Positions 4,292 to 52,070 of a stretch of 64,000 bases of DNA are shown one piece after another. The DNA is from Candidatus Desulfaltia sp. (GTDB lineage: Bacteria > Acidobacteriota > Aminicenantia > Aminicenantales > UBA8522): the NCBI GenBank assembly GCA_035528895.1, contig DATKXS010000157.1, positions 1,843 to 65,842 on the forward strand. The letters run 5' to 3'. The notes below the pieces were generated by a model that was not told the DNA's origin, searched no databases, and worked only from the letters and a program-made list of their open reading frames with translations. A program made the position numbers and the translations under genes. Within the stretch, counting starts at the first letter, position 1, and every line of letters begins with the position of its first letter.

Positions 4292-5707
<1,416 letters not shown>

Positions 5708-5809
5708 GATGATACACTCCTTTATTGGATTCGATCGCAGTGACTAAAATTCAGTATATCAAAAAATGCCCGGCGAGCCCATTCCATTTATCCTAATTTA
5801 ACCATCTCC

Positions 5810-5952
5810 TTTTCCGTGATTTCTCTGGTCTCAGGAGGCCGCCCTATGCCCCCGCACCCCGGGGAACCAGTCACATCGGTTCCCCCCATCGGAAAATAGC
5901 CGATGGGTCCCCCCTCCGCTACGGGGGCCTTAGGTCGGCCTCCTGAGACCAA
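5810..5952. repeat. structured ~145-nt intergenic repeat element, copy A (nested inverted repeats, multi-hairpin)
   Basis: Near-perfect outer 20-nt inverted repeat ggtctcaggaggccgcccta / taggtcggcctcctgagacc. Inner hairpins ggggaacc..ggttcccc and ccatcgg..ccgatgg. About 85% identical to the copy at 51822-51972. Confidence 0.7.
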
Positions 5953-6048
5953 CACAAAGATCACCGACTGGGAAGTGCCTCCTAGCATAACGGCGGCGAA
6001 AAGTGTATAAGGAGCATAAAAAAATAGGTGCAATCAGGAGGCCCGGCC

Positions 6049-7698
6049 ATGAACAAATATCGTCCGCTTTATCTTGTTTTTATCTTCCTTTTCTTTTTGA
6101 TCAGCGGTTTTATGGCCATCTCCGGGGAAAAAGCGGTATCCAAGGATGCCGGTTCCTATGATGAACTGGTTGCACTTTTTAGGGAATGGCGGGAGTTCCA
6201 GAAACCCAGGGTTGTCAACGGTGTGCCCGATTATTCAGCAGCGGCGATGAAGGAGCAGAGAGATAAACTTGCGGCCTTCCAGAAACGGCTGGCGGCCATC
6301 GACTGCACCCGCTGGCCGGTTGCCCAACAGGTCGACTACCATCTTGTCCGGGCCGAGATGAACGGCCTCGAGTTCGACCACCGCGTCCTCCGGCCGTGGT
6401 CACGGATGCCCAATTTTTATGTCTCCGTCACCGCATCCGAGCATGATGTGCCGCTTCGGGAAGGGCCGGAGATTTTCGACCCGCTCAACCTCTGGAAGCA
6501 TGAGTTACCGCTGGGGGAGAAGGAGGTGCTGGAATATAGGGAGAAGCTCCGTGCTGTTCCTGCCATCCTTGCCCAGGGTAAAAAGAACCTGGTCGAAGAA
6601 ACGAAAGACCTTTGGACACTCGGCATCCCCGAGATTCGAGGCGAGAGCAGGACCCTCGACTATCTGGCCAGGCAATTGGCAAAATATCATCCGGACATTG
6701 CGCCCGAGGCAAAGAGGGCCAAATCGGCCGTCGATGATTTCCTTTTCTGGGTCGAGGAAAAAGAGAAAACGATGAAACCGGCACCCTGCGGAATCGGGGT
6801 CGAAAATTTTGACTGGTACATGAAAAACGTCCATCTCGTCCCCTACACCTGGAAAGAACAGGTCGCCGTGCTGGAGAGAGAATGGGAACGCTCGACCGCC
6901 TCCCTGAAACTCGAGGAACACCGGAACCGTCATCTTCCTGAGCTCGTTCCTCTGGCAACCGAAGAAGAGGCGAGGCGCCGCTACAACGAGGCTGTCGATG
7001 AGTTCATGCGGTTTCTGAGGGAGGAGTCCGTCTTCACAGTGCCCGATTACCTGCACTTGGACTATTTCAGGGGACGGTTTGCCCCGCCGGACGCCCAGCG
7101 TGATTTCTTCGCCAAGGTCGAGTCGCTCGACTCCATGCCTATGAAATGCCACAGCATGCACTGGCTGGACAAACAGCTTATGGCCAACGATCCTCATCCC
7201 AGCCCTATCCGCCGCGTTCCGCTTCTCTACAACATCTGGGATTCGCGGGCGGAAGGCCTGGCCACGGCGATGGAGGAACTGATGATGCAGGCCGGTCTTC
7301 TGGACGAGAGGCCTCGGGCCAAGGAGTTGGTCTATATTCTCGTCGCCATGCGTTGCGCCAGGGCCATGGGGGACCTCAAGATGCACAGCAACAAGTGGAA
7401 CCTCGAACAGGCGAGGCAGTATGCCGTGGAGCGGACGCCCTATGGCTGGCTTCTTCGCGACGGCGAGACGATCTGGACCGACCTGCGGATCTACCTTCAG
7501 CAGCCCGGCTACGGGACGAGCTACGTCGTGGGCAAGGTCCAGATTGACAAGCTTATGGCCGACCGGTCCGGCCAAATGGGCGCCGGGTTTAAGCTCCAGA
7601 AATTCATGGACGAATTCCTAGGCTGCGGCATGATCCCCGTCTCACTCAGCCGCTGGGAGATGACCGGCCTGGAGGACGAGATCAAGAAGCTTTGGTGA
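6049..7698 (+). CDS. secreted hypothetical protein, possibly DUF885-like
   Basis: N-terminal signal peptide, with AGGAGG RBS before the ATG at 6049. Overall size and the C-terminal F-DEFLGxGxxPVSL pattern are reminiscent of DUF885 lipoproteins, but no HExxH-type motif was found. Confidence 0.45.
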   Translation: MNKYRPLYLVFIFLFFLISGFMAISGEKAVSKDAGSYDELVALFREWREFQKPRVVNGVPDYSAAAMKEQRDKLAAFQKRLAAIDCTRWPVAQQVDYHLVRAEMNGLEFDHRVLRPWSRMPNFYVSVTASEHDVPLREGPEIFDPLNLWKHELPLGEKEVLEYREKLRAVPAILAQGKKNLVEETKDLWTLGIPEIRGESRTLDYLARQLAKYHPDIAPEAKRAKSAVDDFLFWVEEKEKTMKPAPCGIGVENFDWYMKNVHLVPYTWKEQVAVLEREWERSTASLKLEEHRNRHLPELVPLATEEEARRRYNEAVDEFMRFLREESVFTVPDYLHLDYFRGRFAPPDAQRDFFAKVESLDSMPMKCHSMHWLDKQLMANDPHPSPIRRVPLLYNIWDSRAEGLATAMEELMMQAGLLDERPRAKELVYILVAMRCARAMGDLKMHSNKWNLEQARQYAVERTPYGWLLRDGETIWTDLRIYLQQPGYGTSYVVGKVQIDKLMADRSGQMGAGFKLQKFMDEFLGCGMIPVSLSRWEMTGLEDEIKKLW

Positions 7699-7719
7699 CT
7701 GCAAAAAATGGGGACTGCA

Positions 7720-7757
7720 AAAAATGGGGACGGTCCTATTTTTGTCCCCATTTTTTC
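7720..7757 (+). terminator. rho-independent (bidirectional) terminator hairpin
   Basis: The sequence aaaaaatggggac..gtccccatttttt is a 12-bp GC-rich stem flanked by an A-tract and a T-tract, just after the 7698 stop. It is preceded by a 17-nt tandem duplication (ggggactgcaaaaaatg x2). Confidence 0.7.
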
Positions 7758-7923
7758 CGAGCAATCTTGTGTTTGACTGTTCGTTTGTCGTTTAATGCTG
7801 AGTGTGCTAAATTGGTAGCTCCCTCCGAGTCAAAGAGTCTAAGGCGGAGAAACCGTTAGGACTCGCGCCCGTCAGGGCAAGGCCGGAAACGGCCCTGCCT
7901 TCCGTGCTTGAAAAGGAGGCCAG

Positions 7924-9873
7924 ATGCAGCATCGGAACCGCGGTTTTTCCATCACCCAAACAAAGATGAGCGCCCTAATCTTAGGTCTCATTATCAGCCT
8001 TTCGTTCTCTTTTCCCGGCTGGAGCCAGGAAAAAACCAAGGAAAAGGAAGTCGACAAAAAGGCCCAAGAGACCAAAATCACAGAAGAGATCATCGTTGTC
8101 GGCCGGGCGCCGCGCGATCTTCCCGTGGCCACGGTCACAACGATCATGGTGACGCAGATCGACCAGCGCCGGCCCCTGGACCTGGCCGAAGCTATCAGGT
8201 ACGCCCCGGGCGTCATGGTGACCTTCGGCGACAAAGACACGTACACCCTCAAACTGCGGGGCATGGACGCCAAACGCATCGCCCTGCTCCTGGACGGCGT
8301 TCCCGAGGTTGAGCCTTACTACAGCACCTTCGACCTGAAAACGGTCACGGCCGCGGGGCTCGACTCGCTCCAGATCACCAAAGGCCCTTCTTCGGTCCTC
8401 TATGGTCCTAACACGCTGGGCGGCATCGTTAACGTCATCACCCGCCGGCCGGGCCCGGAGCCGCGCTTGGCGCTGACCGGCTCCTACGGCGAGCATTCCA
8501 CCCGGGGCATCATCCTCGACGGCGGCGCGCAGTGGAAGAAGTTCGCCCTGGCGGGGAGCGCCTCCTACCAGGATTCGAACCGTTTCGTTTATCCCGACGA
8601 GTCCGGCGAAAATGTCTCCCGGGCCAACAGCGACTATGAGCGGTTCAACCTGAACGCCAAACTTTACTACACGCCGAGCGACCGGACCGAGATCATGGTC
8701 AACGGCGGGATCTACCGCTCGAACTACGGCATGCCCGCCGCCCTGTCCGTGCAGAGGGCTCGCTACTGGAGGTTTAAGAACTGGGACCGCACCTCGTTCA
8801 ACGCCGGCGGATTCACCTCCCTGGGCGAGCGCTCCACGCTCCGGTTCCGGGCGTTCTACATCGGCTATCAGAACACCCTTAACCAGTGGAGGGACGCGGC
8901 GATGACGGTCCGACAGTTCGAGAGCACGTTCGACAACGAAGTATACGGCGCCTTCGGGCTGGCGGACTTGGCGGCCGGCGACGGGAACGCCCTCAAGCTG
9001 AGCCTTTACTTCCAGAAAGATATCGCCAGGTCTCAGGATGACGTCGGGCTGTCCTGGGATGAGTTTGACCAGTCCACCATGGCGGCGGGTCTGGAAGACC
9101 ATTATGACCTCGGCGACCGCTGGAAGCTCATCGGCGGCTTGAGCCTGGACTATATCGCCAAGTACTCCGGCGGAAGCACGACCAAGCTCAACCCGTTGAT
9201 CGGAATCAAGTTCTCCCCCGCCGAATATCTCGACCTCCATGCTTCGGCCTCCCTCAAGTCCAAGTTCCCCTCGATGCGTTCGATGTACTCGACAACAAGC
9301 GGCAACCCCGACCTCGTCTCTGAGCAGGGGACCTGTTTCGAACTGGGGGGGTCTTACAATCGGGGAATACTCGTCAGCGGGGCGATTTTCGCCTATGAGT
9401 TCAAGAACTTAATCGACAGCGTCCGCCTCGCCGACGGATCGCGCCGCTACTGGAACATCGGCCGGGCCCACATCAACGGAGCTGAGCTCCAGGTCCAGAA
9501 AGACTGGCGGCGGGTGAGCCTCCTGGCCAACTACACTTACCTCGACAACCGTAACGAAAGCGACGACCGGCCACTCGATGCCCTTTCCGATCACTCCCTG
9601 AACTTCGACGTCACGCTGAGGCCCGTCGACCGACTCCGCCTGACGGCTCTCGGGCTCTATGGGTCCAAGTCCCACTGGTTCGATTCCACAACGAGCGAAG
9701 TCCTCGAAATTCCTGCCTACTTCAGCCTGGATGCCGTGGCCGCTTACGACCTCCGGTTCTGCGAGGTCTTCGTTAAGGCGACCAATATCTTCAACGCCGA
9801 AGTCTATACCGAGCCCGGCTTTCCCTGGAGGGGCAGCTACTTCGAGGTCGGGGTCCGCCTGCCGATATTATAA
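7924..9873 (+). CDS. TonB-dependent outer membrane receptor
   Basis: AAGGAGG RBS, signal peptide, plug-domain motifs (DLAEAIRYAPGV, GMDAKRIALLLDGVP) and a beta-barrel with alternating aromatic residues toward the C-terminus. Confidence 0.85.
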   Translation: MQHRNRGFSITQTKMSALILGLIISLSFSFPGWSQEKTKEKEVDKKAQETKITEEIIVVGRAPRDLPVATVTTIMVTQIDQRRPLDLAEAIRYAPGVMVTFGDKDTYTLKLRGMDAKRIALLLDGVPEVEPYYSTFDLKTVTAAGLDSLQITKGPSSVLYGPNTLGGIVNVITRRPGPEPRLALTGSYGEHSTRGIILDGGAQWKKFALAGSASYQDSNRFVYPDESGENVSRANSDYERFNLNAKLYYTPSDRTEIMVNGGIYRSNYGMPAALSVQRARYWRFKNWDRTSFNAGGFTSLGERSTLRFRAFYIGYQNTLNQWRDAAMTVRQFESTFDNEVYGAFGLADLAAGDGNALKLSLYFQKDIARSQDDVGLSWDEFDQSTMAAGLEDHYDLGDRWKLIGGLSLDYIAKYSGGSTTKLNPLIGIKFSPAEYLDLHASASLKSKFPSMRSMYSTTSGNPDLVSEQGTCFELGGSYNRGILVSGAIFAYEFKNLIDSVRLADGSRRYWNIGRAHINGAELQVQKDWRRVSLLANYTYLDNRNESDDRPLDALSDHSLNFDVTLRPVDRLRLTALGLYGSKSHWFDSTTSEVLEIPAYFSLDAVAAYDLRFCEVFVKATNIFNAEVYTEPGFPWRGSYFEVGVRLPIL

Positions 9874-9990
9874 GGATGATATGCCCATAGTGCCTGACTT
9901 GTCTTGAAAGTCATCCTGGCCCCCCATATCTTTTCGTCTTTATTGCCGTTTATCCAATGCTCAAGCCCAAGATGAAAAAGGCCGAAGCGA

Positions 9991-11355: not shown

Positions 11356-11487
11356 ACGCGTCGGCCGTCGCGGACGACAACCTTGCCGTTCTTGATGACG
11401 TGGCGGATGGGGTTCCAGCCAAGCTGCAGGACAAAGAGCGTCGAGCCGACTATCGAGCTTCCGGGGTGGAAATCCGAATAGAAAATA
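11352..11487 (-). pseudogene. decayed 3'-terminal fragment of a hutI-like amidohydrolase gene (duplicate of the 13961-14275 region with a ~165-nt internal deletion)
   Basis: Translation ...[36 protein letters not shown] parallels the C-terminus of the 13961..15241 protein. The nucleotide segments 11364-11425 and 11426-11487 are ~85% identical to 13983-14046 and 14213-14275. Confidence 0.7.
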
Positions 11488-13960: not shown

Positions 13961-15241
13961 TTAAAAAGAAGAATTTCGTTTTCCGTCGCGGACGACGACC
14001 CGGCCGTTCTTGATGACGTGACGGATGGGGTTCCAGCCGAGCTCGTAGACTAGAGACGCATATTCGGGAACGTCGCAGAGCAGCATGTCCATCTTTTTTC
14101 CGACCTCGAGGCTGCCGATGCTGTCGTGTCGGCGCAGCGCAAAGGCCGCGTTGGCCGTTACCGCGTTGAGCGCTTCCTCGATGCTCATCTTCAAGAGATA
14201 CACGCCGAGCTGCATCACAAAGAGCATCGAGCCGATCATCGAGCTCCCGGGGTTGAAATCCGAGGCTAGGTTAAGGGCGGCGCCGGCATCGATGAGCCTT
14301 CGTGCCGGCGCCTTTTTTTCGAGCATCAGGAAAAAGGACACAGACGGCAGGAGGGTGGCCGCTGTTTCGCTCCGGGAAAGGACCCGGATTCCCTTTTCCG
14401 TGATGCTGATCAGATGGTCGGCCGAGGCTGCCCCGACCTCGGCCGCCAACTCTGCCCCTCCCAGGGCAGAGAATTCGTCGGCGTGGATCCTGATCTTGAA
14501 CCCGGCCCGCTTGGCCGCTTCGGCCAGCCGCCTGGTTTCTTCCACCGAAAACACACCCTTTTCGCAGAAGACATCGAAGAACTCGGCCAGATCCCGGCGG
14601 CGCACTTCAGGCATGATCTTCTTGATGAGGAGGTCGATGTAAGCGCTCTTCCGGGTCTTGTACTCCTTCGGGATATCGTGAGCGCCCATGAAAGTGGAAA
14701 CGATGTCCACCGGATGATGTCGAGCGGCCTCTTTCAGCACCTCGAGCTGCTTGATCTCGTCCTTGAGGTTCAAACCGTATCCGCTCTTGGCCTCGACCGT
14801 CGTCGCGCCGTGCAGCATCATCCGGTCGAGCCGCGCCAGGCACAGTGAGAGGAGGTCTTTTTTGGAAGCCCGGCGCGTCGCTGCGACCGTCGTTTGGATC
14901 CCCATCCCTTTCTTTGCCAGTTGCTGGTAGGTATATCCCCGCAGCCGCAGCCGGAATTCCTCGACCCGGTTCCCGGCGAAGGGGAGATGGGTATGGGAAT
15001 CGACGAACCCGGGCAGTCCGACCATCCCGGTCCCATCTAAGTGCACCGCCGAGCGTTCCGGTCGGACCTTGGCCCTGAAGTCCCTTTCCTTTCCGATGAA
15101 GACGATCCGGCCCCTGGAGGAGGCAATCCAGGCTTTATCCACCGGCCCGGCATCCTGCAGGGCGTTCTCCCTTTTCGGGATCGGTCCCCGGCAGGTGACG
15201 AGCCGGCGGCAGCCCTGGACGACGAGGTCAGCCGAGGTCAT
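13961..15241 (-). CDS. hutI: imidazolonepropionase-like amidohydrolase (HutI family)
   Basis: The [13 protein letters not shown] metal-binding motif and the overall pattern match HutI. Its start overlaps the ftsZ stop by 14 nt. Confidence 0.75.
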
Positions 15242-18555: not shown

Positions 18556-19944
18556 TCAGCGCTTTTCCTCCAGGGCGGCGATGATCTCGGGAACCGTCTT
18601 GGTGATGTTGCCCGCGCCTTGAGCCAGGATGATGTCTCCCGGCCGGGCCAGCCGCTTGAGGAGACGCGGCACTTTCTTGAGGTTGGGTTCGAAATGGACA
18701 TCCCTGTGGCCGAACCGTCGGATCTCCTCATAAAGCGCCTGGCCGGTGATCCCGGCGAGGGGCGCTTCGCCGGCCGGATAGACCTCGGTCACGACCAGGA
18801 CGTCCGCCTGGTTGAAGGCGGTGGCGAAACTGTCCATGAGCAGCGACAGCCGGGTGTAACGGTGCGGCTGGAAGACGACGATCAGGCGGCGCGCGAAGCC
18901 GCGCTTGGCCGCGTCCAGGGTGGCCCGGATCTCGGTCGGATGATGGCCGTAGTCCTCGATGATCATGATGTCGTCGACCTTTTTCTTCAGCTCGAACCGC
19001 CGGCCTGTCCCGGTATAGCTCTCCATCGCCCGGAGGATGACCTTCGGCGGGATGTCCAGGTCGAGCCCTGCGGCGACGGCGGCCATGGCGTTGGAGATGT
19101 TGTGCTTGCCCGGGACCTGGAGTTTCAGCGCCCCGAGCTTTTTCCCCTTGTAGTAGAGCGCCGAAGTGCTCCGGAACTCGGCGAAGCTGTGGTCGCGGGC
19201 GAAAACGTCCGCCTGGGTGGAGAAGCCGTAGGAAATGAGCCGGCGCTCGAGCTGGGGAATGAGGCTCTGCAGGTTCGGGTCGTCGAGACAGAGGATGATC
19301 GGGCAGTAGAAGGGGACCTTGTTGGCGAAGTTGACGAAGGTCCTCTTGATCTCCTCGACGGTCTGGTACTGGTCGAGATGTTCGTCGTCGATATTGGTCA
19401 GGACGGCGATGAACGGCGAGAGGTAGAGGAAGGAGCGGTCGCTTTCGTCGGCCTCGGCGACGATGAAATCGCCCGCCCCGAGCTTGGCGTTGGCGCCGAC
19501 GGTATTCAGCCGGCCGCCGACGATGATGGTGGGGTCGAACCCGCCGTGCTCGAGGACGAGGGCGATCATCGAGGTCGTCGTGGTCTTGCCGTGGGAACCG
19601 GCCACGGCGATACCGTACTTCATCCGCATCAGTTCGGCCAGCATCTCGGCCCGGGGGATCACCGGGATCTTGAGCCGGCGGGCCTCCTGGACCTCGACGT
19701 TGTCCTCCTTGACGGCCGAGGAGATGACGGCCACGTCCGCCCCGTGCACCCGTTCCCCCCGGTGGCCCTTATGCACCCGGGCCCCGAGGTCGGCCAGCCG
19801 GCGGGTGACATCGGTCGTCTGGAGGTCGGTCCCCGAGACCCTGTAGCCGAGGTTGATGAGCACTTCGGCGATACCGCTCATGCCCGTCCCGCCGATGCCG
19901 ATCATGTGGATGTGCTTGAGCTTACGGTATATTGACTTGACCAC
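18556..19944 (-). CDS. murC: UDP-N-acetylmuramate--L-alanine ligase
   Basis: N-terminus HMIGIGGTGMSGIAEVL and Mur ligase central and C-terminal motifs. Confidence 0.95.
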   Translation of the reverse strand: MVKSIYRKLKHIHMIGIGGTGMSGIAEVLINLGYRVSGTDLQTTDVTRRLADLGARVHKGHRGERVHGADVAVISSAVKEDNVEVQEARRLKIPVIPRAEMLAELMRMKYGIAVAGSHGKTTTTSMIALVLEHGGFDPTIIVGGRLNTVGANAKLGAGDFIVAEADESDRSFLYLSPFIAVLTNIDDEHLDQYQTVEEIKRTFVNFANKVPFYCPIILCLDDPNLQSLIPQLERRLISYGFSTQADVFARDHSFAEFRSTSALYYKGKKLGALKLQVPGKHNISNAMAAVAAGLDLDIPPKVILRAMESYTGTGRRFELKKKVDDIMIIEDYGHHPTEIRATLDAAKRGFARRLIVVFQPHRYTRLSLLMDSFATAFNQADVLVVTEVYPAGEAPLAGITGQALYEEIRRFGHRDVHFEPNLKKVPRLLKRLARPGDIILAQGAGNITKTVPEIIAALEEKR

Positions 19945-26003: not shown

Positions 26004-27472
26004 CAGGGCTTTCCCTCCAGAGTCCCGAGGATCGAGCGGACGACTTCGGTGTCGTCGAAATGGATTGTCCTGTCCTTGAAAATCTGATAGTCCTCGTGCC
26101 CTTTGCCGGCGATGAGAACGTAATCGCCCTTCCGGGACTCGGCCAGGGCCTGAGCGATGGCTTCTTTCCGGTCGGGAATGATCCTGTAGTTCTTCGCGCC
26201 CTTGCTGATGAAACCCTGTTCGATGTCGGCGATGATGGCCGGCGGGTCCTCGGAGCGGGGGTTGTCGGAAGTGATGAAGGTCTGGTCGGCGAGGGCCGCG
26301 GCGACCTCTCCCATCCTCGGTCTCTTGGTCTTGTCCCGGTCCCCGCCCGCTCCGAAAACGAGCAGGATGCGTTGGGGCTTTAGCTCCCGGATGGCTTCCA
26401 ACAGGCTGCGCATGGCCTGGTCGGTGTGGGCGTAGTCGACAAAAACATGGAAGCCCAACGTGTTCTCCACCTTCTCCAACCTCCCCGGGATGGTCTTGAG
26501 AGCCGAGATCCCATCTTTGATAGTCGACGCGGGGATGTTCAGGGCCAGGCCGGTAGCCACGGCCGCCAGGATGTTGTAGAGATTGTGCTTGCCCATCAGC
26601 GCCGAGCAGATCTTCACCTGTCCCCCTGGATAGTCCACTTCCGCTTTGATACCGGTCTCCGCGAAGCGGCACTGCTCGGCCCGGACGATCGCCGCCGGCT
26701 CGAGGCCGAAGGATATGGTGGTCAGGGGGAGCTCGGCCATCAGGCGATTTCCCCAGGGATCGTCCAGGTTGACGACCGCCGTTCGCTTCTTGGCGTTCAG
26801 GAAGAAGAGCCTTTTCTTGGCCTCGAAGTAATCCTCCATCGAGGCGTGGTAATCGAGGTGCTCGGCGCTCAGGTTGGTGAAGACCGCGATGTCGAAATGC
26901 ACTCCCCAGACCCGCTTGAGATCCAGGGCGTGGGAGGAGACCTCGATGAGGCAGTGGGTCACGCCTTGCTCCAGCATCTCGCTCATCATCCGCTGCAGGT
27001 CGGGGGCTTCCGGAGTCGTCCGGGGGGCCGGCTGGACCATCTTCGGCCAGCGGTAGTTGATGGTCCCGATGACGCCGGGCCGGAATTCCCCCTTCTGGAG
27101 GATGGACTCGAGGAGATAAGTCAAGGTCGTTTTGCCCTTGGTCCCGGTGATGCCGATGACTTTCAAGCCCATCGAGGGGTGGCCGTAGAAGTTGGCCGCG
27201 GCCAGGGCCAGAGCCTCCCGGACGTCCGGCGTCTGGACCCATGGAGATGTCCACTTCTGCGGTCCGGGTCGGTCCGAGAGGATGGCCTCGGCGCCGCTCC
27301 GCCGGGCCTCTTCGATGAATTTGAACCCGTCCTTTTTTTCTCCCAAAATAGCGGCGAAAAGGAATCCCGGCTTGACCTGCTTGGAGGAGTGGGTGAGGCC
27401 GAGGATTTCCGTCTCGCCGTTTCCGCTGAACTGGCAGTTCGGGACGTCCTTGAACAGGTCCTTGAGCTTCAT
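26003..27472 (-). CDS. murE: UDP-N-acetylmuramoyl-L-alanyl-D-glutamate--2,6-diaminopimelate ligase
   Basis: Motifs GITGTKGKTT and DYAHT, and a DNPR-type motif (SDNPRSEDP) consistent with meso-DAP specificity. Confidence 0.93.
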   Translation of the reverse strand: MKLKDLFKDVPNCQFSGNGETEILGLTHSSKQVKPGFLFAAILGEKKDGFKFIEEARRSGAEAILSDRPGPQKWTSPWVQTPDVREALALAAANFYGHPSMGLKVIGITGTKGKTTLTYLLESILQKGEFRPGVIGTINYRWPKMVQPAPRTTPEAPDLQRMMSEMLEQGVTHCLIEVSSHALDLKRVWGVHFDIAVFTNLSAEHLDYHASMEDYFEAKKRLFFLNAKKRTAVVNLDDPWGNRLMAELPLTTISFGLEPAAIVRAEQCRFAETGIKAEVDYPGGQVKICSALMGKHNLYNILAAVATGLALNIPASTIKDGISALKTIPGRLEKVENTLGFHVFVDYAHTDQAMRSLLEAIRELKPQRILLVFGAGGDRDKTKRPRMGEVAAALADQTFITSDNPRSEDPPAIIADIEQGFISKGAKNYRIIPDRKEAIAQALAESRKGDYVLIAGKGHEDYQIFKDRTIHFDDTEVVRSILGTLEGKP

Positions 27473-35171: not shown

Positions 35172-35264
35172 GACGAACCTCCTCGGTTTTTGTTGGGGAG
35201 ACCATAAATATCAGAAACGGCAGCCCAAATCAACCAGGCTCAGGAATCGCTGCGGGTAATCATT

Positions 35265-35306
35265 TCTGTTTTGGTGATTCCATTGGTCGCAGGAGGCCGC
35301 CCCAAG
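35265..35306. repeat. truncated copy (5' arm only) of the structured intergenic repeat family
   Basis: ttttggtgattccattggtcgcaggaggccgcccc matches the first ~40 nt of the elements at 5810 and 51822, then diverges. Confidence 0.55.
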
Positions 35307-37046: not shown

Positions 37047-38186
37047 ATGTTGTACCATATGCCCACAGCCGTCATCTTTGGGGCGGGCACGTTCGCTGAA
37101 TTGCGGCGAGTTGTCCAGGATGAATTCCGTTCTTCCCGCCCATTTTTGGTCACCGATCGAGGTGTCGTTGAAGCCGGAATTGCCGAGAAGGTTCTGGCCC
37201 ATCTATCTCCGGTGGCCGTTTATGACGAGGTCGAGCCGAATCCCAGGCATGGCACCATTGACAGAGCGGGGGAGTTCGTCCGGACTCTCCGTCCCGACCT
37301 CATCGTCGGAGTCGGCGGCGGCAGCGCCCTGGATGCCGCCAAGGCGATCGCCCTGCTGGCGACGAATCCGGGCCGGATCGAGGAATATGAAGGTCGGGAG
37401 CGCTACAAGACCGCTCCTCTTCCCGTATTCGCGATTCCCACAACTTGTGGCACTGGAAGCGAGGTTACCTGGGTGGCCGTCATCACTCACACTGGGCGCC
37501 AGTTCAAGATGAGCATCAAGGGAACGCGGATGTATCCGGCGGCGGCGCTCGTCGACCCGGACCTGCTCATGACTTTGCCTTCTCATCTTATTGCCTCGAC
37601 GGGCCTGGATGCCCTCACCCATGCCGTCGAAGCCTTCACTGTCAAGCCGGCCAATTTCATCTCCGATACTCTGGCCCTGGAATCGATCCGCCTGATCTTT
37701 CGCTTTCTCCCGCGGGCCTATCAAGATATCAAGGGCGATAGCGAGGCCAGGGAAGGGCAGATGAAGGGAAGCCTCCTGGCCGGGATGGCCTTCGGGAACA
37801 GTGATGTCGGCGCCGTCCACTGTTTGGCCGAATCCGTCGGGTCGCTCTACGACACGCCGCACGGGGTCGCCAATGCGATTTTTCTGCCTCCCGTCATGGA
37901 GTTCAATCTTCCGGCGGCGAGAGAGAAGTACGCGGCCATCGCCGCCGCCATCGGCCTCGAGGCCGCCGCCAAGGATGACGCCGCTCGCGCCCTCATCCAG
38001 AAAATCAAGGACCTGTCCCGTTCCCTCTCCATCCCCTCTTTTCGGGACTTGAGAATCCCGGGGGGCGATTTCGTCGCCATCGCCCGGAAGTCTTTCGAGA
38101 ACAATTCGAACTTCTCCAACCCCCGCGAAGCCAGCGCCGAGGATTATCTTCACATCTTGCGGCAGGTCCACCAGGCGGGCGCATAG
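37047..38186 (+). CDS. iron-containing (group III) alcohol dehydrogenase
   Basis: Fe-ADH motifs (GGGSALDAAKAIA; metal-binding HxxxH region, ALTHAVEA) and the glycine-rich NAD site. Confidence 0.85.
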   Translation: MLYHMPTAVIFGAGTFAELRRVVQDEFRSSRPFLVTDRGVVEAGIAEKVLAHLSPVAVYDEVEPNPRHGTIDRAGEFVRTLRPDLIVGVGGGSALDAAKAIALLATNPGRIEEYEGRERYKTAPLPVFAIPTTCGTGSEVTWVAVITHTGRQFKMSIKGTRMYPAAALVDPDLLMTLPSHLIASTGLDALTHAVEAFTVKPANFISDTLALESIRLIFRFLPRAYQDIKGDSEAREGQMKGSLLAGMAFGNSDVGAVHCLAESVGSLYDTPHGVANAIFLPPVMEFNLPAAREKYAAIAAAIGLEAAAKDDAARALIQKIKDLSRSLSIPSFRDLRIPGGDFVAIARKSFENNSNFSNPREASAEDYLHILRQVHQAGA

Positions 38187-38411
38187 AAATTTGGGGACAT
38201 GAACCGAATTTCTGAGTTCGGCATCGTGTCCCCAAATTTCCAATTTAAGCGACGAGCTGGCACTCCTAATTTCGGCAAGGCGAGGGGTAGTGGCATCGAA
38301 ACCGTGCCCGCTCACTCCTCATACGGGTTTTTCCTGCCACTACCCCTCACCTCATAAAAAAGACAAAGCAAGCATATTCTCTTAAGACAAGGCGAGCTAT
38401 ATATCCCGAGC

Positions 38412-39407
38412 CTAGATTCGCAGTTCGACGATGTCCTCGTCTTCGAGAGCGAAATCGCGGTGGACCATCTGGCCCTGCAGTGACAGCGAGCCTTTCCTCC
38501 ATACCCGGGCGTATTTCAGTTTCTCGAAAAAGTCTTTGTGGACCGCGCTGGCCATTTCGCTCACCGTGCTGCCTTTGGGGAGTGAGAAGGGCTCGTTGAA
38601 ATCGGCCTTCTTGCCGGGCGTCTTGCTGTAGACGCGGATGATATCGAGGAGGAGGAAGATCTCTCTCTTGAGGCCGTCCAGCCCGTCGCCGCGCGCGGCC
38701 GACACGGGATAGAACGCGACCTTTCCTCCGAAATATTCCTTGACGAAAGCGAGGTTTTCACCGGCAAGAGGAGAATCCCGCTTGGTTCCGATGAAAAGAG
38801 TTTTTTTCTGATAACGGCCTGGTTCCGGGGGGGACGCCGGATTCTCGGCGTGAAACTCCACTCGTTTTTGCTCGAGCTTGGAAAGGAGACTCTCCAGGAT
38901 GGAAACGGTCTCCTGGTCGGCCAGGTCGAGGACGAGCAGAACGCCGTCGGCCGCTTTGACCAGCTCGACCAGGTCGGTCTCGATGTCGTCGGGCGCAAGG
39001 GGCTGTGTATCGACGAGCTGGACCTGGATGTTCTCGAATTTCATCATGTAGGGAGCGGGTGTGCGGGTCGTATAGGGGTAATCTCCGACTTCCGGGTGAG
39101 CGCCGGTGAGCGAAGCGATGAGCCGCGATTTCCCGGCATTGGGGGGGCCGATGACGACGACCTGTCCAGCGCCCGTTTTTTCGACGTGGAAGCTGGGTCC
39201 GTGCCGGGCCACCATGGGCTTCGCTAGGGCGGCCGACTTGAGCTTGGCCATCTTCGTTTTGAGCATGGCCTGAAGCTTCTCCGTCCCCTTGTGCTTGGGG
39301 ATCGTGGCCATCATCTCCTCGAGGGCCTTCATCTTCTCCTGGGGAGTCTTCGCCTCCCGGAATTTCCGTTCGGCTTCGATGTATTGGGGCGTCAGGTTGG
39401 CCGGCAT
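38412..39407 (-). CDS. Obg/DRG-family GTPase with C-terminal TGS domain
   Basis: G1 GPPNAGKS, G2 threonine (YPYTT) and G3 DTQP. The C-terminal ~80 aa have a TGS-like pattern (VHRDFALEDEDIVELRI). Confidence 0.75.
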   Translation of the reverse strand: MPANLTPQYIEAERKFREAKTPQEKMKALEEMMATIPKHKGTEKLQAMLKTKMAKLKSAALAKPMVARHGPSFHVEKTGAGQVVVIGPPNAGKSRLIASLTGAHPEVGDYPYTTRTPAPYMMKFENIQVQLVDTQPLAPDDIETDLVELVKAADGVLLVLDLADQETVSILESLLSKLEQKRVEFHAENPASPPEPGRYQKKTLFIGTKRDSPLAGENLAFVKEYFGGKVAFYPVSAARGDGLDGLKREIFLLLDIIRVYSKTPGKKADFNEPFSLPKGSTVSEMASAVHKDFFEKLKYARVWRKGSLSLQGQMVHRDFALEDEDIVELRI

Positions 39408-47319: not shown

Positions 47320-47391
47320 TGGGCCTACCAGGATTCGAACCTGGGACCTGCCGGTTATGAGCCGGTAGCTCTACCGCTGAGCTATAGGCCC
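47320..47391 (-). tRNA. tRNA-Met (anticodon CAT; an elongator or Ile2-lysidine type cannot be excluded)
   Basis: Minus-strand read GGGCCTATAGCTCAGCGGTAGAGCTACCGGCTCATAACCGGCAGGTCCCAGGTTCGAATCCTGGTAGGCCCA folds into a cloverleaf with a 7-bp fully paired acceptor stem, TTCGAAT T-loop and CAT anticodon. CCA is not encoded. Its own TTGACT-17-TATAAG promoter ends 8 nt upstream. Confidence 0.85.
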
Positions 47392-51799: not shown

Positions 51800-51821
51800 A
51801 ATCAGGTGATGAGGCGCGAGT

Positions 51822-51972
51822 ATTTCCGTTTGGGTGATTCTATTGGGCGCAGGAAGCCGCCCTCGGCCCCCGCACCCCGGGGAACCAGTCCCGTCGGTTC
51901 CCCCCGTCGGAGAAGCCGACGGGTCCCCCCTCCGCTACGGGGGCTTCAGGGCGGCTTCCTGCGCCCAATATT
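51822..51972. repeat. structured ~150-nt intergenic repeat element, copy B
   Basis: Perfect 21-nt outer inverted repeat ttgggcgcaggaagccgccct / agggcggcttcctgcgcccaa, plus gcccccg/cgggggc and inner hairpins ggggaacc..ggttcccc and ccgtcgg..ccgacgg. Homologous to copy A, with compensatory stem substitutions. Confidence 0.7.
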
Positions 51973-52070
51973 ATTTATATTATCCATTCATAATTGGTTC
52001 CTCATGATCCTGTCCCGGGCGATTGACAGGAAATGCCGGTCGTAGAGTATACTAGTGACCGATCAGAGAA

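Follow-up and report, generated by a model that had tools for sequence, protein, structure and literature searches.

What is the strongly palindromic sequence that fills the spacer between a class-II aldolase gene (4292-5707, minus strand) and a DUF885 gene (6049-7698, plus strand) in the stretch of DNA analysed here (64,000 nt in all, hereafter the window), and does it do anything for these two genes? A preliminary description had presented positions 5810-5952 as a novel structured element of about 150 nt in a divergent promoter region, homologous to a second copy 46 kb away, with a small RNA (sRNA), a REP/MITE-like element and a regulatory cruciform as candidates. The nested inverted repeats on which it relied are all present, the 20-nt outer pair containing one C.T mismatch, and the multi-hairpin appearance is the product of two layers, namely inverted arms, long and imperfect, and an asymmetric core that is conserved and takes the shape of a T when folded. 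The parts of this copy, hereafter copy A, are as follows.

5790-5970, plus strand (the strand of the conserved asymmetric core): copy A, a full element of 181 nt of the type-1 subfamily, based on an empty site in a relative (L127) and on its covariance model (CM) score
5790-5825, plus strand: distal left arm, common to copies B and C and to the type-1 consensus
5826-5853, plus strand: outer stem P1, 5' arm, pairing with 5924-5951, with covariation across 65 copies
5924-5951, plus strand: outer stem P1, 3' arm, with the same 65-copy covariation
5848-5928, plus strand: T-shaped core (P1b around P2, P3 and the joiner), near-invariant across subfamilies
5848-5854 and 5922-5928, plus strand: P1b, GCCCCCG/CGGGGGC, from the repeat search
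5861-5885, plus strand: P2 hairpin, GGGGAACC-N9-GGTTCCCC (5861-5868 and 5878-5885), with a 9-nt loop
5885-5907, plus strand: P3 hairpin, CCCATCGG-N7-CCGATGGG (5885-5892 and 5900-5907), the variable module
5908-5921, plus strand: C-rich unpaired joiner, TCCCCCCTCCGCTA, with columns at least 90% invariant among the 65 aligned copies
5952-5970, plus strand: distal right arm (..CAAAGATCAC..), truncated or degenerate relative to the consensus ...AAAGATCACATATTTAGAGATGCTTCC

The outer arms of P1 are 28 nt long and 89% complementary, the degenerate terminus AACCATCTCC (5800-5809) inside the distal left arm matches the family consensus GGAAGCATCTC, and the P2 loop, AGTCACATC, is two positions away from the family loop AGTCCCGTC. 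The predicted fold of the region is a three-way junction, that is, a stem capped by two hairpins, and it is far more stable than the folds of dinucleotide shuffles both as RNA (z = -8.4 for the plus strand and -7.9 for the minus strand) and as DNA (z = -7.8 and -9.0 for the two strands), with both DNA strands giving the same T shape. The CM score is 140 bits on the plus strand and 30 bits on the minus strand.

Copy A is an insertion. In the closest relative (L127, JBAQGA010000278.1; aldolase 94% identical), an empty site in which ...CATTCTATTT directly adjoins TGAAGTGACTCC... is found where the window has 181 extra bases, and this site defines the element as 5790-5970, a larger extent than the one first proposed. 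Another relative (L129, aldolase 90% identical) is also without the element, and a third (L128, aldolase 90% identical) has an orthologous copy at the same site, old and partly decayed, in which the whole P3 hairpin (27 nt) has been deleted and P2 has two mismatches. In the region of L127 that is orthologous to about 5700-9900 of the window (L127:1-2500), the DUF885 gene is also gone except for its first ~20 nt, so that a Moco (molybdenum-cofactor) riboswitch and a TonB receptor gene directly adjoin the aldolase spacer there. This riboswitch lies at 7811-7934 on the plus strand of the window (Rfam RF01055, 64 bits), directly upstream of the TonB-dependent receptor gene (7924-9873), whose start it overlaps.

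The window holds two other copies.

51816-51983, plus strand: copy C, a full type-1 element with its core at 51866-51944; CM score 162 bits, an insertion relative to L123 and L126, outer boundaries good to about 10 nt only
35257-35303, plus strand: copy B, a truncated remnant that retains just the left arm and lacks the core, 78% identical to the left arm of A

Copy C is the copy already noticed 46 kb away; it aligns with A over 51817-51968 at ~85% identity, with a start-to-start spacing of 46018, and compensatory changes separate the two in their outer stems and P3 hairpins. Copy B had been missed. A CM scan of the window with filters off finds only A and C, both on the plus strand, and B falls below its detection; the retention by B of a left arm without a core implies that copies decay by internal deletion. 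Copy B sits ~60 nt upstream of an M28 peptidase gene, and the genes flanking the three copies are unrelated (aldolase/DUF885 for A, cyclophilin/M28 peptidase for B, AIRC/LpxC for C). The dnaG-AIRC-lpxC neighbourhood of C is syntenic in relatives, and the conserved blocks that bracket the copy are ~225 nt apart in the window, ~30 nt in L123 (LpxC 84% identical to that of the window) and ~18 nt in L126 (79%), both of which are without copy C. In the closest relative at this locus (L120:1-150, JBAQGA010000212.1; LpxC 94% identical), a different palindrome, GAGCCCGTTTTC...GAAAACGGGCTC inside GAGAAG...CTTCTC, occupies the C site upstream of lpxC, in the stretch orthologous to ~51800-51990 of the window, and the contig stops at this point; palindromic insertions may be especially frequent in this spacer.

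Some other features of the window should be noted. An unrelated long hairpin at 38266-38362, between the convergent genes 37047-38186 (plus) and 38412-39407 (minus), gives a weak CM match (24.5 bits) through its stem only and may be a terminator or another palindromic repeat. A tRNA gene is present at 47320-47391 on the minus strand (Rfam tRNA, 71 bits), and its anticodon loop, CUCAUAA, suggests a CAU anticodon. Finally, a 61-nt segment occurs twice with 92% identity, 2.6 kb apart (11365-11425 and 13983-14043), and a comparable pair is found at 19049-19111 and 26532-26594; these pairs apparently lie inside ORFs and probably belong to paralogous genes.

How widespread is the element? A scan of one genome per species, using the P2 hairpin and its flanks as the pattern, gave at least 114 loci, and a scan of JGI metagenomes, whose pattern was drawn from joiner/P1b and carries no bias for P2, gave at least 120 further loci, so that the two scans together yield at least 230. 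The hosts among the genome matches listed are Aminicenantes-type MAGs, some of them under other labels, except for one Marihabitans locus (L068), which is not Aminicenantes-type and was rejected as a chance match. Better-sampled MAGs have at least 7-14 copies each, many of them at contig ends, and Logan contigs of the population that the window comes from are broken at the element; the CM recovers ~105 copies among the loci fetched from the matches listed. The family appears to be confined to Aminicenantes (Acidobacteriota). Rfam scans of the window, of copy A and of seven other architectures gave no match that explains the element at gathering thresholds, permissive scans gave nothing credible at E up to 10 (copy A) or up to 1 (the seven other architectures), and no description of such a repeat in Aminicenantes was found in literature searches.

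The host assignment requires comment. A protein identical to the window's aldolase (4292-5707, P0121) is labelled 'Candidatus Desulfaltia sp.' at NCBI, that is, as a member of a Desulfobacterales genus, and several element-bearing MAGs are labelled Eubacteriales or Clostridiales; close homologues and element-bearing genomes are otherwise labelled Aminicenantes/Aminicenantales or carry generic names. Because the nearest homologues are from Aminicenantales, the bins labelled Desulfaltia, Eubacteriales or Clostridiales are probably mislabelled, and we provisionally treat the window as Aminicenantes-type despite its conflicting Desulfaltia label.

The copies fall into discrete subfamilies, with element lengths of 177-200 nt, below the ~500 bp that bounds a MITE, whose long arms are unrelated in sequence yet are always imperfect palindromes.

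Type 1 (the type of A and C): ~177 nt, termini GGAAGCATCTC...GAGATGCTTCC
Type 2: ~197 nt, termini TAATAC...GTATTA, preceded by C and followed by G or A
Cluster 3: ~190 nt, GGTTCTTCTCCCG..., often just after terminator-like hairpins
Singletons: variable length, unique arms

Common to all subfamilies is a core of ~80 nt, comprising P1b, a short junction, P2, P3 and the C-rich joiner. Since the arms of different subfamilies are out of register, the RNAalifold consensus is unreliable for a mixed-subfamily alignment and the structure was specified by hand; with this structure, 94% of the cells in the 65-copy alignment pair, compared with 30-59% when the partners are slid, and 14 pairs are changed on both sides, mostly in P1 and P3. 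The conclusion that this is a repeat family with a conserved secondary structure therefore stands. In the metagenome sample, the P2 inner stem and loop, GGAACC-AGTCCCGTC-GGTTCC, are essentially invariant, and the bases just 5' of the inner stem vary without compensation, which implies that P2 is conserved as sequence in addition to its fold. The variable module is P3, with a covarying stem and a free loop; in about one quarter of the metagenome copies listed, it is replaced by a structured expansion of ~150 nt. This expansion marks an abundant sub-lineage (L013:1750-1960, L052, L054, L056 and ~25 metagenome loci, for example L146, L164 and L169) and contains a hairpin, CCCCCTCCGAT/ATCGGAGGGGG, that duplicates the joiner sequence in paired form; a second type of P3 expansion is seen in L016, L043, L136, L147 and L216.

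Within subfamilies the core is 96-98.5% identical and the arms are 85-97% identical, and the core remains more conserved than the arms after the 22 positions fixed by the search pattern are dropped. The classical MITE pattern is thus reversed, with a constant interior and variable termini. Relative to the asymmetric type-1 arms, the core lies one way in seven copies and the other way in three, as is expected from inversion of a hairpin tip between inverted repeats. No core-less backbone, which would mark the core as a separate insert in older palindromes, was found in ~650 kb, a sample biased toward core-containing loci. A pairing of the P2 loop with the 3' strand of P3 was also considered and rejected, as on inspection neither cluster 3 nor the divergent P3 variants have it; this complementarity is a trivial result of the CCCGTCGG duplication.

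The boundaries of the element are those of a mobile unit. Identity within each subfamily falls from ~90% to ~40% exactly at the termini, which form inverted repeats in both type 1 (GGAAGCATCTC...GAGATGCTTCC) and type 2 (TAATAC..GTATTA). Perfect direct repeats of 9-11 bp abut the termini in L018, L031, L050, L080, L085, L059 and L053, that is, in six type-1 copies and one cluster-3 copy (TCCCCTGGTAA, AAATGGACGG, TTCCCTGGGGA, TTTGCTCAAA, CTTACTGCCG, AAGCCGAGA and ACAAAAAAGG), and a direct repeat of at least 9 nt is present in 18% of copies, compared with 8% of shuffled flank pairings. Most type-1 copies have no target duplication, and copies A and C, both old and with degenerate ends, have no direct repeat at the junctions set by the empty sites. 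Among the matches listed, the type-2 copies are all TA-flanked (27/27) and none has a long duplication (0/27), which would fit a TA duplication at a CTAG-like target. Copies also resemble one another most within a genome: pairs at least 95% identical make up 11/237 within assemblies and 4/3949 between assemblies among the matches listed, where the best within-genome pair is 98.5% identical, and some copies within one genome are 96-98% identical. The preliminary description had held that a transposon-like copy number with target-site duplications would speak against its reading, and this is largely the profile found, with many loci and seven duplications, although A and C themselves have none.

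Overall, the element inserts, is present in many copies, is intergenic (109/117 copies, 93%, by a simple home-made gene caller among the matches listed), has terminal inverted repeats and sharp boundaries, is flanked in some copies by 9-11-bp duplications and occurs in near-identical copies within a genome. The best explanation, to which we give a probability of about 0.78, is that copy A, old and probably inert, belongs to a new family of MITE-like foldback transposons in Aminicenantes whose transposase is encoded elsewhere and acts in trans. Such a transposase would recognise the termini, in type 1 GGAAGCATCTC...GAGATGCTTCC, and staggered cuts of ~10 bp would lead to integration of the element. 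The core is carried by all subfamilies in spite of their unrelated arms, from which we infer that it may be a cis-acting module, aiding propagation or tolerance, for example as a nucleus for hairpin or cruciform formation or as a protein-binding site; alternatively, its uniformity could be kept by gene conversion among copies. At the aldolase/DUF885 locus, element A most likely does nothing specific, as close relatives manage without it.

However, several observations stand against the MITE reading. No autonomous parent, transposase or partner recurs among the 606 predicted proteins near copies, the genes between paired copies are ordinary ones, and no cognate IS was found beside copies in ~1.5 Mb of DNA around the loci. 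The absence of target duplications from A, C and most type-1 copies counts against it as well, and classical MITEs keep their termini while the interior drifts, which is the reverse of what is seen here. In addition, the core is 91% identical (49/54 aligned positions) between copy A and its ortholog in L128, a pair whose arms are 60-65% identical and whose flanking spacer is 69-82% identical, and this is unexpected for a selfish, locally neutral element unless gene conversion operates. Selection on transposition-competent master copies alone cannot explain such conservation in place. Two explanations remain, namely local constraint on the core and gene conversion from other genomic copies, which share the core and not the arms.

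Local constraint would be provided if the ~80-nt T core were a portable functional module, bound by a protein either as RNA or as DNA, the latter in a folded single strand or a cruciform, that several unrelated transposon backbones with different integration chemistries have acquired and that stays constrained after the arms decay. We regard this as unlikely. A related proposal, which we consider quite improbable, is that the core is the working part of the element, a recognition module read in one of these forms by a dedicated protein (an HUH enzyme of the REP/RAYT type, a different recombinase that binds hairpins, or a host factor), with the arms as interchangeable carriers. The near-invariance of the core sequence, unpaired joiner and P2 loop included, in subfamilies whose arms are unrelated argues for it, as do the two insertion signatures that share one core (~10-bp duplications in type 1 and cluster 3, TA flanks in type 2), the conservation of the core above arms and flanks at the orthologous site, and the folding of both DNA strands into the same T; a GTAG on the minus strand adjoins the P1b stem, which is weak evidence, being a 4-nt motif only. 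However, no HUH or other candidate protein recurs beside copies, the target duplications lie at the arm termini and so place the cutting at the ends of the arms and not at the core, gene conversion between copies could account for the conservation in place, and REP elements are 20-40 nt long and are not known to make a target duplication.

The surroundings of the copies bear on whether the host has put the element to use. Among the matches listed, 15 copies are sense co-directional, 18 antisense co-directional, 21 convergent and 14 divergent with respect to genes, so that there is no orientation bias toward genes and the contexts roughly track how common each is. Both A and C lie upstream of promoter-proximal blocks that are conserved in all orthologous loci for both flanking genes, and therefore neither flanking gene's mRNA should include them. 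The gene-adjacent blocks that are invariant in orthologous loci are at 5753-5766 and 52023-52053 of the window; the aldolase-side block reads TTTTTTGATATACT on the minus strand, with an extended -10-like motif, and TTGACA and TATACT stand 19 nt apart upstream of lpxC. These are likely to be the actual promoters, with the repeat outside them. The earlier suggestion of a regulatory element of a divergent promoter is thus not borne out, given this position and the absence of the element from close relatives. A wider form of host use, in which a REP/ERIC-type hairpin or cruciform serves as a divergent-promoter insulator, an mRNA 3' stabiliser or a nucleoid-protein site, is compatible with a transposon origin and seems very doubtful to us. 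It would account for the hairpin pairing that two-sided changes have preserved in A, C and L128, all of them old copies, for the 91% identity of the core against 60-65% for the arms at the orthologous pair, for the position of cluster-3 copies just after terminator-like hairpins and for the cruciform capacity indicated by the DNA folds. It is opposed by the dispensability of the element at both window loci in close relatives, by the spread of contexts roughly in proportion to their frequency, and by the L128 copy, with its P3 deleted and its P2 mismatched.

The emphasis of the preliminary description on a novel sRNA has fared worst. A structured sRNA or cis-regulatory RNA transcribed from the plus strand, acting on neighbour genes or in trans, would be in keeping with the very stable fold, the covariation of P1 and P3 in the 65-copy alignment, the conserved unpaired nucleotides and the variable-length P3 with its large expansions, which are typical of functional RNAs. 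However, covariation in inverted repeats can also come from palindrome-templated correction without any RNA, and inside the arms the core is seen in either orientation. Even with E up to 10, no credible match came from Rfam, the copies show no orientation preference relative to genes, their neighbours are unrelated, and close relatives are without the element at the same loci; A and C lie upstream of the promoter-proximal blocks of both genes. A simple consensus scan found no sigma-70-type promoter in the A or C region. It detected no intrinsic terminator around A either, and around C a single borderline terminator-like site (5-bp stem, 51949-51966), which is no more than is found in shuffles. 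Mismatches in the arms show no excess of the G.U type over the A.C type on either strand (132 vs 189), so that strand assignment from wobble asymmetry yields no signal, and a proposed pseudoknot between the P3 loop and the joiner (CGGAG:CUCCG) fails because the loop varies freely while the joiner is fixed. An RNA of this kind is therefore highly improbable. Three further candidates were rejected: a riboswitch-like leader, for which there is no fixed orientation or coherent gene set (contexts are mixed and neighbours unrelated), a self-cleaving ribozyme, as by eye and on our own reasoning the three-way junction has no hammerhead or HDV-like core motifs, and a coding role, as the 81-aa ORF across A (5788-6033), already taken to be incidental, has no Pfam match and is not shared by copy C, whose ORFs are different, and across 158 copies each frame is open in 16% at most and P3 length is not kept modulo 3.

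For annotation, the MITE-like family accounts for an intergenic sequence that recurs in Aminicenantes, folds strongly, breaks short-read assemblies and could pass for an sRNA or riboswitch, and the covariance model built here would permit it to be masked and catalogued. Its main biological value lies in the combination of variable termini with an invariant structured centre on backbones that insert differently. If the core is a recognised module and does not owe its constancy to gene conversion, this would hint at a pairing of protein and nucleic acid, in a lineage without cultured members, that has not been described before. On present evidence the element is of an ordinary kind, and one of its features is intriguing.

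The element can be compared with several known systems. IS200/IS605-derived PATE elements have subterminal hairpins and neither terminal inverted repeats nor target duplications, and membership in this group is ruled out by the terminal inverted repeats and 9-11-bp duplications found here. The inverted terminal repeat of AAV, ~125 nt long, is a stem capped by two small hairpins whose tip occurs in 'flip' and 'flop' orientations, and the T shape and the two tip orientations of type 1 resemble it as a structural analogy only: the AAV repeat is a viral replication origin at the ends of a linear genome, whereas the present element is a dispersed chromosomal repeat, and nothing points to related proteins or to rolling-hairpin replication here.

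REPs are single hairpins of 20-40 nt with a 5' GTAG and without target duplication or long arms, and the RAYT gene is flanked by REPs. The element shares with REP/BIME sequences its GC-rich, sequence-conserved hairpins, its dispersed intergenic distribution and the lack of a transposase linked to each copy. However, at ~180 nt, with long arms and target duplications, and with no recurring RAYT-like or HUH-like gene family near copies, it does not qualify as a REP/RAYT system. The preliminary description was nevertheless right to count a REP/MITE-like element among its candidates. ERIC/IRU sequences of enterobacteria are imperfect palindromes of 127 bp, built around a central inverted repeat that is conserved, and have longer variants that arise by insertions at fixed internal sites. 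Here, too, an imperfect intergenic palindrome has a conserved centre and length variants from one internal position (P3), although there is no sequence relation, the core is a three-way junction and not a simple inverted repeat, and target duplications and empty sites indicate transposition.

A close parallel is offered by the Correia elements of Neisseria, which are ~100-155 bp long, have 26-bp terminal inverted repeats, duplicate TA and occur in many intergenic copies. We know of no parent IS for the Aminicenantes element, which differs from Correia elements and MITEs in that its termini are wholly different from one subfamily to the next while an internal core of ~80 nt is nearly invariant, and from Correia elements in the ~10-bp duplications of type 1 and in its uncultured host lineage. 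Nevertheless, it is like Correia elements and MITEs in being small and non-coding, in its terminal inverted repeats and many intergenic copies, in its presence or absence among relatives and in its long-hairpin fold, and its type-2 copies are TA-flanked, as Correia elements are.
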